DNA of 64,000 bases, from contig JAVZCB010000005.1 of assembly GCA_038874595.1 (NCBI GenBank), positions 17,594 through 81,593 of the forward strand. Direction: 5' to 3'. Position numbers and translations under genes: made by a program. The DNA comes from Candidatus Micrarchaeia archaeon (GTDB taxonomy: Archaea; Micrarchaeota; Micrarchaeia; CAILAH01). Positions 25,306 to 63,039 of the stretch are shown here, piece by piece. The first letter of the stretch is position 1; every line of letters begins with the position of its first letter. Below the pieces are notes generated by a model, which was given only the letters and a program-made list of their open reading frames with translations, searched no databases and was not told where the DNA came from.

Positions 25306-25974
25306 TCAATAGCAAAAATGCCTCTTGAAGAGGTAATCTGCAATATTGTTGTTGCCGCACATGCGTGCTATATCAATTGCAGTATGCTGCCATTCATCCT
25401 CAAACAATATCCACGCGCCATTATTAACCAGCATCCTGGCTATGCGCATGCTACCGCTCGCTGATGCAAACATCAACGCCGTGGAGCCAGAGAAGTTGCG
25501 TGCATTGACATCCGCTCCTGCATCAATAAGCATCTTTGCAATTGTTACTTCGCTAAGTGATGCCGCCCACATCAGTGCGTTGTCGCCAAGCACTGTCGGC
25601 AGGTCAACCTGTGCGCCTGCATTGAGCAGATGGGATACAATCCTAATCCTGTTGCACATTGTAGCCAATACTATTACAGGTGTGCCCTCATCATCAACCA
25701 CGTTTGGGTTTGCACCGCTTTCAAGCAGTGCTTTGACCGCACCGCTGTCACCTTTCAGGGTAGCATAAATAAGTGCATAGCCGAGCTGTACGTCATGTCC
25801 CTGCTTGTAAATCCAATTTAAGTCAGGGATGAGCTTATTTATCTTGTTTGTCAAGGGCAGCATAGCATTTTTTCGAAAACTGTTTATCCTATGTGCCTTC
25901 TCTGCGGGGGACTGCGAAGGCTCAACAATAAAATCGCATGCCTGCACTGTTGCTGTTTTCATCTGGCTGATCAT
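25306..25974 (-). CDS. Ankyrin-repeat protein
   Basis: Multiple 33-residue ankyrin repeats with G-TPL..A...G motifs. Confidence 0.7.
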   Translation of the reverse strand: MISQMKTATVQACDFIVEPSQSPAEKAHRINSFRKNAMLPLTNKINKLIPDLNWIYKQGHDVQLGYALIYATLKGDSGAVKALLESGANPNVVDDEGTPVIVLATMCNRIRIVSHLLNAGAQVDLPTVLGDNALMWAASLSEVTIAKMLIDAGADVNARNFSGSTALMFASASGSMRIARMLVNNGAWILFEDEWQHTAIDIARMCGNNNIADYLFKRHFCY

Positions 25975-37294: not shown

Positions 37295-38572
37295 CTAACT
37301 GCTTCTGGTTCTCTTGGCACCTGTCCTGCCGGTAATGCTCCCTGGTTTTGGTTTGAAAAATATCATCAGTAATGCCGCAAGCAGTGAAGCTGCACCCCCA
37401 AATATGAATGTTGCCTCTGGAGATACAACTTTCCAAAGGTATCCTGCAATAACGCTTGAAGGCAATGCTGCAATCCCGATAGCCATCTGGAACATGCCCA
37501 TTGCTGTGCCCCTTAAGTTTGTTGGGGAAAGGTCAGAAGCATACGCTTTCTGCACTCCTATAAATGCTGCTGTGGATATTCCATAAAGCACGAATAACAG
37601 CAACATCGCGCTTGTAGAATTAAGAATTGCAAAGCCGAACAGTATTGCAGCAAACACAACATAGGATATTATGAGAATTGCCCGCTTGCCTATCCTATCC
37701 GCATATTTACCAATCGGATATGAAAATGCCGCCTGGAATATGTTGTAAACGATATATAATAGTATTGAAATGAGCAGCCCTTCTGTGAGGCCGGCTTTCA
37801 TTATAAAAAACATATAGCTGAAATTTGCAAGTGTAAACACCGCTGTTATTCCGGTAAATACCAGCATATCACGCGGCAGCGCCTTCACAGCCGAAAGAAA
37901 ATTATACTCTTTGCCGGTTGGCTTAAACTTTGGCTCTTTCACGAGTACAAGAGGGATTACTGAAAGTATTGCAATAATCCCAGCAAATGCAATTATGAGA
38001 GAATACTCACTTAATGTGGGCTGGGTGAATACATACATTAGCAGAAGAAGAACTGCAACTGAACCAAAAATTGCACCTACCGTATCAAGTGCCTGGTGCA
38101 GTCCAAAGCCCGCACCGCTCTTATTAGGCAGGAACTGGCTTATCATTGCATCGCGCGGTGCATCACGCATGCCCTTGCCCACGCGCTCCAATGATGCCGC
38201 ACCAAGAGCAAGAAAGGGTGATGGTGCAAAAGCCAGGAAAAACTTGAACAAGGCGGAGGTTATATAACCTGCATAAACAAACACCTTTCTTTTACCTATC
38301 TTATCAGATATATACCCAAATAAAATCTTCAGAAAGCTTGTTATTGAATCCCTTATCCCCCCTACAAGCCCTATCAGGACGGAATCGCCACCAAGTGCTG
38401 CAAGGAAAAAAGGTAGTATGGGCATTATCATCTCACTGCTGAAATCGTTTAGGAAGCTGACTACACCAAGCAGTGTTATGTTCTTCACACCTTCTTTCTC
38501 TTTTTTAGGTACATTCGCTTTCTGATTCATAATACAAAATAAGATGAAAAAGCTTAAATTGTGCCATGGCAT
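37295..38572 (-). CDS. MFS transporter
   Basis: About 12 predicted TM helices and MFS signature loops. Confidence 0.8.
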   Translation of the reverse strand: MPWHNLSFFILFCIMNQKANVPKKEKEGVKNITLLGVVSFLNDFSSEMIMPILPFFLAALGGDSVLIGLVGGIRDSITSFLKILFGYISDKIGKRKVFVYAGYITSALFKFFLAFAPSPFLALGAASLERVGKGMRDAPRDAMISQFLPNKSGAGFGLHQALDTVGAIFGSVAVLLLLMYVFTQPTLSEYSLIIAFAGIIAILSVIPLVLVKEPKFKPTGKEYNFLSAVKALPRDMLVFTGITAVFTLANFSYMFFIMKAGLTEGLLISILLYIVYNIFQAAFSYPIGKYADRIGKRAILIISYVVFAAILFGFAILNSTSAMLLLFVLYGISTAAFIGVQKAYASDLSPTNLRGTAMGMFQMAIGIAALPSSVIAGYLWKVVSPEATFIFGGAASLLAALLMIFFKPKPGSITGRTGAKRTRSS

Positions 38573-38580
38573 TAATATTG

Positions 38581-38921
38581 TGAGCGGTTGGTGGGCAGCT
38601 TACGGTGCCTTTCTTTGGTGCAGCTTTCTTTAGAAAGCTGGGAACTTGATAAGCTCCTGTACACCAAAAGAAAGGTACTGAGGAAGGTCCACCCACGCAG
38701 AGCTCTGACTGCATTAATATTGCAGATGGGGGAACAGAAACGGTACCCTCCCCGCCTTATGGGATGAGGATAACGACTTCGGTGGGATAAGGGATGAAAC
38801 GGCCTCCTGTGCAGGGCTGTGAGCGTGCAAGCCCTTTCGGGCGCTTAGACAAATGCTGCCAAGATGAGCATATCCATAAGGAAGTGCATCTTACAGAAGG
38901 TGGCCTACAACCAGCCGCTCA
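38581..38921 (+). ncRNA. rnpB: RNase P RNA (candidate)
   Basis: 10-bp terminal helix UGAGCGGUUG (38581-38590) with CAGCCGCUCA (38912-38921); CR-I-like GAGGAAGGUCCACCC (38680-38694); CR-V-like ACAGAAGGUGGCCUA (38893-38907); these form a P4-like pairing with a bulged U. Confidence 0.7.
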
Positions 38922-38931
38922 TTAAAAATAA

Positions 38932-40395
38932 TCAGTGCTTTGCCTTCTCCAGCAATTTTATGGTCTCAAGCACCACTGAAATCCCTGAACCTGTACAGCC
39001 AAGGTCTACTGGAGGGATTGGCTTGTTTCTGTATGCTGTGCCTGCAATATCCAAATGTATCCATTTCGCTTTTGATATAAAACTGGAGAGGAATGCAGCG
39101 GCGGTTATTGCACCAGCCTCACCGGTGTTTGTAACATTTGCAATGTCTGCAAACTTACCTTTGTTCATCTCTGAGTACTCCTCCCATAAAGGCATCTGCC
39201 ATATTTCATCAAAACTTTCTGAGCTTGCCTTTTTCATCAAGCTGGCAAATTCATCATCGTTTGAAAACATGCCTATGGCATAGGAACCCAATGCAACAAC
39301 ACATGCACCTGTAAGCGTCGCAAGGTCTATCATGTAATCTGGCTTATACTTATCCTCTGCATATGCCAAAGTATCAGCCAGCACAAGCCTGCCCTCTGCA
39401 TCCGTGTTGAGTATCTCTATCGTCTTGCCATTGTATGCTCTTACGATATCACCGGGCTTTGCGGCACACCCTCCGGGCATATTCTCCGTACAGGGCATTA
39501 AGCCTATCACATTGATTTTTGGTTTCATCTCAGCCACGGCCTTCATTATACCTAGCACTGCACACGCACCGCTCTTATCAAATTTCATATCCTCCATACC
39601 TTTGCTTGGCTTAAGTGAGATGCCCCCGCTGTCAAATGTAAGGCCTTTACCTGCAATAACAACAGTTTTCTTTGCACCTGGGCACGTGTATTCCAGGATT
39701 GAAAGTGTCGGCTCCCTTCCACTTCCGCTCGCAACTGCAAGAAACGCATTCATCCCCATTTTCTGCATATCTTTCCTTGAAATAAGCTTGTACTTAAGTC
39801 CTGTGCGTGATGCGAGCTTTTTTGCTTCCGCTGCCATAAGCTGCGGTGTAGCGACGTTTGCCGGCTTGTTTGCAATGTCGCGCGCAAAATTTATTGACTC
39901 TGCAATTTTTCTCGCTTCATTTGCGGCTGCAACAAACTCCTTTTCTACATAAAGGAAAATGTGGTTAGGCGTAACACCATCTTCATCTTTATTGCTCCCA
40001 CCCTTCTCCCCTGTCTTGAATTCTTCGTATTTATGCACATTTACAAAAAGGGCATATGTGAGGTTCTTCAAGTGCAACTGCTCAAGGCCGCGCCCATCAA
40101 TCACCAGTGAAGGCGTACGAAGCGCCTTCGCAAGCCCAATCACGGCGCTTGGAATCCTGCGCGCATGCCTCGGCTTGAATTTTTCTTTCTCACCTAACCC
40201 AACAAAAATTATTCCATCTATGAAAGCGATTTCACCCACCTTTGCTAAAAATTTGTTCTCTGATAGCTTTTTTGCGTAATTACCATACCCCGTAGATATA
40301 GGTTCCGCTACACCCTTCCCACTAAAACATAACACTGCGTGCACTGGTCCCGATAAGTCTTTTTCAATAATCTCAACCTTAGGCTCCTTTACCAT
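38932..40395 (-). CDS. pepA: Leucyl aminopeptidase (M17 family)
   Basis: NTDAEGRLVLAD signature and M17 metal-binding residues. Confidence 0.85.
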   Translation of the reverse strand: MVKEPKVEIIEKDLSGPVHAVLCFSGKGVAEPISTGYGNYAKKLSENKFLAKVGEIAFIDGIIFVGLGEKEKFKPRHARRIPSAVIGLAKALRTPSLVIDGRGLEQLHLKNLTYALFVNVHKYEEFKTGEKGGSNKDEDGVTPNHIFLYVEKEFVAAANEARKIAESINFARDIANKPANVATPQLMAAEAKKLASRTGLKYKLISRKDMQKMGMNAFLAVASGSGREPTLSILEYTCPGAKKTVVIAGKGLTFDSGGISLKPSKGMEDMKFDKSGACAVLGIMKAVAEMKPKINVIGLMPCTENMPGGCAAKPGDIVRAYNGKTIEILNTDAEGRLVLADTLAYAEDKYKPDYMIDLATLTGACVVALGSYAIGMFSNDDEFASLMKKASSESFDEIWQMPLWEEYSEMNKGKFADIANVTNTGEAGAITAAAFLSSFISKAKWIHLDIAGTAYRNKPIPPVDLGCTGSGISVVLETIKLLEKAKH

Positions 40396-62421: not shown

Positions 62422-62877
62422 ATGCAAAAATTCCATAAAAGAAACTGTGAAAGGAAAAAGAGCCGTTTACCTAATCTTGAGCCAAAGGTTGAGCAGGCGG
62501 TAGGAAATACTAGGCAAAAAGACCTAGATGCAATTCTCCTGAGAGCGGCTGCTGAAAATAATTATGAAAAAGTGGTCAAAGCTGTCCTGGCAGGAGCCAA
62601 TATAAACGCACAGGATGAAGACGGGAATACGCCGCTTATGCACGCCGCATCTAACTTGCGTGAAGATATAGCAAGGTTCCTTCTTGAAAATGGTGCGGAT
62701 ATCAACATCAAGAACAAATACAATAATACTGCCTTAAAGATTGCAAAAGGGTTCTGCAGCAGAAAGGTTATTGCGCTGATTAAAATGTATAAAAAAAGCG
62801 CCTCCAATAAAGCTGCTAATCTTAAGAAAAATGAGTGCAAAAACACAAAAACGGAGGGGTTTTTAGAACCAACCTAA
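62422..62877 (+). CDS. Ankyrin-repeat protein
   Basis: Ankyrin consensus DGNTPLMHAASNLREDIARFLLENGADIN. Confidence 0.65.
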   Translation: MQKFHKRNCERKKSRLPNLEPKVEQAVGNTRQKDLDAILLRAAAENNYEKVVKAVLAGANINAQDEDGNTPLMHAASNLREDIARFLLENGADINIKNKYNNTALKIAKGFCSRKVIALIKMYKKSASNKAANLKKNECKNTKTEGFLEPT

Positions 62878-62895
62878 CTTTGTGTACTCATAAAA

Positions 62896-63012
62896 TGGAC
62901 TCGCGGGGATTTGAACCCCGAGCCTCCACCTTATCCTTCTGCTTTTTGGAAGAGAAAGGGGTCTCCCTGCCTCTCTTGCGAAGGTGGCGTCATGCCGTTA
63001 GACCACGAGCCC
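62896..63012 (-). tRNA. tRNA-Ala (anticodon CGC) with about 45-nt intron
   Basis: Hand-folded cloverleaf: acceptor GGGCUCG/CGAGUCC with G3:U70, T-arm CGGGG-UUCAAAU-CCCCG, anticodon loop UUCGCA[intron]A, discriminator A; T-run follows the 3' end. Confidence 0.8.
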
Positions 63013-63039
63013 AATCCAGATAAGGGTTTTAGGGCGTGT

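Follow-up and report, generated by a model that had tools for sequence, protein, structure and literature searches.

As a ribozyme, RNase P RNA trims tRNAs at their 5' ends, and in characterised examples the P4 pseudoknot and its bulged U hold the catalytic Mg2+ ions. P8 and the L15/P16/P17/P6 structures are substrate-binding elements of bacterial and type A RNAs. Type M RNAs are exemplified by those of the Methanococcales, such as the Methanocaldococcus jannaschii RPR, and of Archaeoglobus fulgidus. The type is defined by the absence of P8, L15 and P16/P17, and its members are inactive in trans without proteins (PMC2475606). An L7Ae-binding double K-turn forms in the P12 region of both type M and type A RNAs (PMC5499556). 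A survey published in 2026, covering 298 archaeal RNase P RNAs, found that P16/P17, P6 and P8 have been lost independently in several archaeal lineages, that P3 (a common protein-binding expansion) and P12 are enlarged in some RNAs, and that P19, which varies in length and stacks on P2, occurs in various archaeal and bacterial clades (PMC12974513). Published variation among the archaeal RNAs thus covers forms that lack P8 and P16/17, forms that have P19 and forms in which P3 or P12 is enlarged (PMC12974513, PMC2475606).

A preliminary description of the window (the 64-kb stretch of a Candidatus Micrarchaeia contig analysed here) had placed an unannotated RNase P RNA in a 359-bp gap between the genes for an MFS transporter and a leucyl aminopeptidase (pepA). 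The gap is found at 38573-38931, between open reading frames at 37295-38572 (minus strand; Pfam MFS_1, 9.5e-42) and 38932-40395 (minus strand; Peptidase_M17, PF00883, 1.9e-120). When the whole window was scanned against 4227 Rfam families with Infernal cmscan, positions 38583-38919 of the plus strand matched RF00373 (RNaseP_arch) at 91.4 bits (E = 4.8e-24), an untruncated, full-length match to model positions 1-288 of 288, and this was the only family with a hit there. An E value of this size across 4227 families excludes a chance match, and all five conserved regions (CR-I to CR-V) were found in the alignment to the RF00373 consensus. The gathering score of the family is 84 bits, and the window copy exceeds it by only 7 bits because of large insertions in P3 and at the P19 position, and deletions of P8 and P16/17. 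Since the score is nonetheless above the curated threshold, any lack of annotation would reflect the annotation pipeline rather than a difficulty of detection. We conclude with high confidence that 38583-38919 (plus strand, 337 nt) encodes the RNA subunit of the ribonucleoprotein RNase P in an archaeon of the Micrarchaeota (DPANN), with ends that may reach 38581 and 38921. The same region might in principle encode some other RNA of the RNase P/MRP clan, such as a bacterial type A or B RNA on a contaminating contig, and a permissive cmscan search did return overlapping matches to the remaining clan models, which are suppressed by clan competition. All of these scored lower than the archaeal model, and given the archaeal content of the contig and the source of the homologues (see later) the probability of such an origin is negligible. 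Outside the clan, the next-best family on the RNA stretch in the permissive search was a C/D-box sRNA (sR17), at 23.8 bits and below its own threshold.

As had been proposed from the sequence, the region is GC-rich, although moderately so (52.2% GC for the RNA against 44.9% for the window and about 43.6% for the flanks), and it is highly structured: the minimum free energy of the fold is -130.7 kcal/mol compared with -109.1 +/- 5.6 for shuffled sequences (z = -3.9), and none of 100 shuffles was as stable. The placement of the RNA on the plus strand, antisense to both flanking genes, was likewise borne out, and this orientation argues against a structured untranslated leader or trailer of the neighbouring genes with an incidental likeness to RNase P RNA. 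The alternative that the region codes for protein could draw on two mechanically predicted ORFs that overlap it, at 38505-38714 (minus strand, 69 aa) and 38864-39283 (plus strand, 139 aa), but neither has a Pfam match, and the E value together with the covariation described below is incompatible with an incidental resemblance, so that we consider both the coding and the untranslated-region readings effectively refuted.

The catalytic domain of the RNase P RNA is closed by P1 (38583-38593/38908-38919), in which seven of eleven pairs change on both sides within the clade. It contains the 10-bp terminal helix noted in the preliminary description, formed by AGCGGUUGGU (38583-38592) and ACCAGCCGCU (38910-38919) with one G.U pair, and the flanking UG and CA dinucleotides (38581-2 and 38920-1) could extend this by two pairs. 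P2 follows at 38594-38599/38855-38860 (3' strand GCUGCC), with two of its six pairs changed on both sides. The two strands of P4, seen earlier as close matches to the universally conserved sequences, lie in CR-I (GAGGAAGGUCCACCC, 38680-38694) and CR-V (ACAGAAGGUGGCCUA, 38893-38907), and were read from the sequence, the cmscan alignment and the clade alignment. They pair as AGG-[U]-CCACC with GGUGG-CCU (38685-87 and 38689-93 with 38899-38906), leaving U38688 bulged as expected, and all eight pairs are 100% paired in the nine aligned sequences. Even here compensation is visible, as A38691-U38901 is replaced by G-C in seven relatives and by G-U in one, and CR-V (GGCcUA) compensates for an A-to-G change in CR-I (GAGGAAgG) that is specific to the lineage. 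P5 (38694-38697/38824-38827), taken from the cmscan alignment, is invariant and fully paired in the clade. P15 is reduced to a bare 4-bp hairpin, GCCC-UUUC-GGGC (38831-38842), without the L15 internal loop, P16, P17 or P6, and cmscan aligned 3 nt where the model has 36 nt. The bare hairpin occurs in all nine clade members, with 4 bp in seven of them, and carries a compensatory C-G to A-U change in two.

The specificity domain (38702-38817) begins with P7 (38702-06/38813-17) and lacks P8, which is deleted in the cmscan alignment. In its place there is a single hairpin at the P9 position (38710-38724, loop UUAAUAU), followed by P10/11 (38725-32/38803-12), CR-II (ACAGAAACG, 38734-42), P12 (38746-38793) and CR-III (AUGAAACG, 38794-38801). 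The cores of CR-II (AGAAA) and CR-III (UGAAA) are invariant in the clade, helices 6-11 of the hand-derived structure covary, and the span from CR-I to CR-II is 61-63 nt with one hairpin in every clade member, P8 being absent throughout. P12 carries the invariant motifs GG-AUGA and GAC-UC, which the model aligned to the L7Ae-binding double K-turn region. The weak sR17 match falls on the same motifs in distal P12 (38760-38812, plus strand), and probably reflects a K-turn-like L7Ae site rather than a separate sRNA. A canonical K-turn, with its C stem, 3-nt bulge and tandem G.A, could not be fitted to these motifs by hand in its standard form. L7Ae may bind at P12, as is suggested by the consensus alignment and the weak C/D-box match.

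Homologues were sought by a pattern scan in which each prokaryotic species was represented by one genome, and which gave 118 loci, mostly from DPANN archaea, and by a metagenome scan with a clade-specific 23-mer, which added only two further loci (L120 and L121). By blastn, the closest RNAs were those of L097 (89% identity over 258 nt) and L079 (82% over the full length), both from bins labelled Candidatus Micrarchaeota, followed by L003, L059 and L094 and then by L032, from a bin labelled only 'archaeon'. The window sequence was aligned with eight homologues, mostly from Micrarchaeota genome bins, using MAFFT (n = 9; window, L097, L079, L121, L003, L094, L059, L120 and L032), and pairs were counted on a hand-derived structure of 75 pairs. 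Standard pairs were formed in 91.1% of cells across the nine sequences, compared with 36-45% when the 3' partners were slid by 1-3 columns, and 31 of the 75 pairs showed changes on both sides, against 4-13 in these slid controls. None of 500 shuffles matched the observed value on any of five measures. One of the aligned loci, L121, has a near-identical tandem duplication of about 120 bp (580-770, minus orientation), which takes in the ~65 nt at the 3' end of the RNase P RNA (the P19-position hairpin, CR-V and the 3' strand of P1) and the downstream spacer, and which may be a genuine local duplication or else an artefact of assembly. In three other genomes a 23S rRNA gene is followed shortly downstream, on the same strand, by the RNase P RNA gene: a Methanodesulfokora genome (L020, 3986-4262, ~30 nt from the 23S gene) and two Iainarchaeum bins (L105, 1077-1311, ~100 nt; L078, 1797-2042, ~1 kb). 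Such a placement suggests that the gene is linked to the rRNA operon or co-transcribed with it.

A decaying pseudogene, or a non-functional relic of a paralogous RNase P RNA, could account for a score barely over threshold (91.4 against 84 bits) and for the large insertions and deletions seen when the RNA is compared with the family consensus. These insertions and deletions are, however, common to the clade and not private to the window copy, the five conserved regions are intact and P4 is perfectly paired. The many compensatory changes require selection on the fold, and nine relatives, eight of them in the covariation alignment, have the same architecture, upstream promoter box and genomic position, so that decay is a very improbable explanation. 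Three clear RNase P RNA homologues in the clade fall under the RF00373 threshold of 84 bits: L087 (1338-1642) at 76.4, L059 (5453-5804) at 53.2 and L120 (2486-2883) at 50.4 bits. The largest P3 insertions are in L059 and L120, and the largest P19-position insertion is in L087. Being below the gathering score, all three would be missed by standard Rfam-based annotation.

Upstream of the RNA there is a putative archaeal BRE/TATA box, AAAAAGCTTAAATT (38547-38560, plus strand), centred about 26 nt from the RNA 5' end. A TATA/BRE-like box is present 25-31 nt upstream of the RNA in all nine clade members, where GCTTAAAT or TTTAAA comes after an A-rich stretch, also rendered as (A)nGCTTAAAT. Its sequence and position point to a role as the promoter. 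No clear oligo-T terminator was found 3' of the RNA end. The longest ORF of the MFS gene (425 aa, start at 38572) would run over the putative promoter box, whereas the public gene call is for a protein of 411 aa starting with ATG at 38530, which is the likely true start. Alignments of MFS homologues begin at residues 12-26, in agreement with the shorter form, and given a start at 38530 the true spacer between the MFS gene and pepA is probably 401 bp. The RNA gene seems to have a TATA/BRE promoter of its own, situated in the short AT-rich spacer that separates it from the divergently oriented MFS gene.

The neighbourhood is also conserved. The RNA is adjoined by pepA in nine relatives and by the MFS gene in six, and a transglutaminase-like gene is found beyond pepA wherever the sequence of the relatives extends far enough, so that the order transglutaminase-pepA-RNA-MFS is kept in most relatives with enough flanking sequence. 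The identity of the pepA proteins among these relatives goes down to about 51%. Proteins encoded on either side of the RNA in L079 (the SKW51 bin) share about 80% identity with their window counterparts. The covariation, the shared promoter box and the gene order speak for a functional, independently transcribed gene and against a relic.

The contig stems from a Logan assembly of sequencing run SRR30574052. With regard to contamination, the window encodes several archaeal markers (TFIIE-alpha, RFC, SepF and an intron-containing tRNA-Ala), the tRNA intron is of archaeal type, and the close homologues of the RNA are all in archaeal genome bins. The tRNA-Ala(CGC) gene (62895-63013, minus strand; Rfam, 50.1 bits) has a 45-nt intron at the canonical 37/38 position. 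ARAGORN at default settings reported no tRNA in the whole window, and recovered this gene once introns were allowed. Genes for the RNase P proteins Pop5, Rpp30, Rpp21, Rpp29 and L7Ae were absent from the 34 ORFs scanned, about half of those in the 64-kb window, which for such a fragment of a genome is uninformative. Two ankyrin-repeat proteins are encoded at 25306-25974 (minus strand) and 62422-62877 (plus strand), with matches to Pfam Ank families at E values down to 8e-24. Other members of the DPANN archaea live attached to a host cell, and if this archaeon does so too, the two proteins might be relevant to host interaction.

Two insertions distinguish the RNA from the RF00373 consensus, at P3 and at the P19 position. 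The expanded P3 (38603-38680, 78 nt) contains 67 nt where the model has 4 nt, and in the minimum free energy fold it is a three-way branched structure with a long basal stem and apical hairpins at 38621-38640 and 38641-38657. The basal 5 bp covary in the clade, and the length of the P3 segment ranges from 11 to 117 nt, with 76 nt in the window copy. The P19-position hairpin (38861-38892, 32 nt; an insertion of 28 nt relative to the model) lies between the 3' strands of P2 and P4. Its helix is 69.9% paired in the alignment, an understatement that arises because MAFFT left the hairpins of distant relatives unaligned, and when per-sequence folds were used instead, all ten relatives examined fold a hairpin at this site, in a segment of 20-75 nt with no conservation of sequence. 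Among close relatives, the basal pairs change on both sides. In a rough regex survey of the 118 loci, in which the lengths are approximate and ~40% of the loci failed to match the anchors, DPANN RNase P RNAs seemed commonly to have a bare P15, and commonly an insertion at the P19 site. A dispersed repeat or mobile element was also considered, but neither the P3 motif GCUUUCUUURGAAAGC nor the P19-position hairpin recurs elsewhere in the window.

Variable-length hairpins between the 3' strands of P2 and P4 are known as P19 in bacterial type B RNAs and in some archaeal and eukaryal ones, and the hairpin of the clade, at 20-75 nt and unconserved in sequence, is likened to these by position, whether through homology or repeated insertion. 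P3 is likewise the site of a large expansion in eukaryal RNAs (ES3.1), where a helix-loop-helix binds Pop6/Pop7 or Rpp20/Rpp25, whereas the window P3 is a three-way branch and not a helix-internal loop-helix. It could be imagined that the P3 expansion and the P19-position hairpin serve, in this lineage alone, as docking modules for protein subunits that are extra or altered, that is, a eukaryote-like 'proteinised' P3 that arose independently in DPANN archaea. The variation of P3 among close relatives, from 11 to 117 nt, speaks against a conserved site for a protein, and we regard the proposal as doubtful.

The window RNA is a member of RF00373, with all of CR-I to CR-V, a P4 pseudoknot that leaves a U bulged, and P1, P2, P3, P5, P7, P9, P10/11, P12 and P15 in the standard order, and differs from the consensus in the 67-nt P3 insertion, the 28-nt P19-position insertion, the deletion of P8 and the reduction of P15-P16-P17 from 36 to 3 nt. 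It is not a type A RNA, as both P8 and the P15-L15-P16-P17 structure with its P6 pseudoknot are missing, nor is it type T (Thermoproteaceae), in which most of the specificity domain is missing, since P7, P9, P10/11, P12, CR-II and CR-III are all present. It agrees with type M in the absence of P8, L15, P16, P17 and the P6 pseudoknot, and has one hairpin between P7 and P10. It differs from type M in having a far longer, branched P3, a P19-position hairpin and a P9-position loop of UUAAUAU rather than GNRA, and its lineage is Micrarchaeota/DPANN and not Methanococcales or Archaeoglobus, the nearest relatives all being from Micrarchaeota or DPANN bins. Since the structural grade is that of type M but the lineage is Micrarchaeota, we refer to the RNA as type-M-like and not as type M. 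The loss of P8 and L15/P16/P17 in this lineage was probably independent of that in the Methanococcales. No feature of the window RNA is outside the range already described (PMC12974513).

The RNA folds as a standard two-domain RNase P, with a catalytic domain (P1-P5, P15 and the P4 pseudoknot) and a specificity domain, and as the catalytic subunit it would remove the 5' leaders of pre-tRNAs. In such a molecule P4 and its bulged U would organise the catalytic metal ions, J5/15 and P15 would contact the acceptor end, and in the specificity domain (P7, P9, P10/11, P12 and the CR-II/CR-III module) it is CR-II and CR-III that would read the tRNA elbow. As it lacks the substrate-binding elements P8 and L15/P16/P17/P6, the RNA is most likely heavily protein-dependent, like the type M RNAs of the Methanococcales.

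This is an ordinary housekeeping gene, and its reduced structural form has been described before. An essential gene is now placed on the contig, and the DPANN archaeon that carries it would use the ribonucleoprotein form of RNase P. The RNA adds a further example of independent RNase P RNA reduction, outside the Methanococcales. With expansions pushing some members down to 50-76 bits, some DPANN genomes may have been wrongly scored as lacking RNase P RNA, and surveys of RNase P in DPANN genomes need a clade-aware model.
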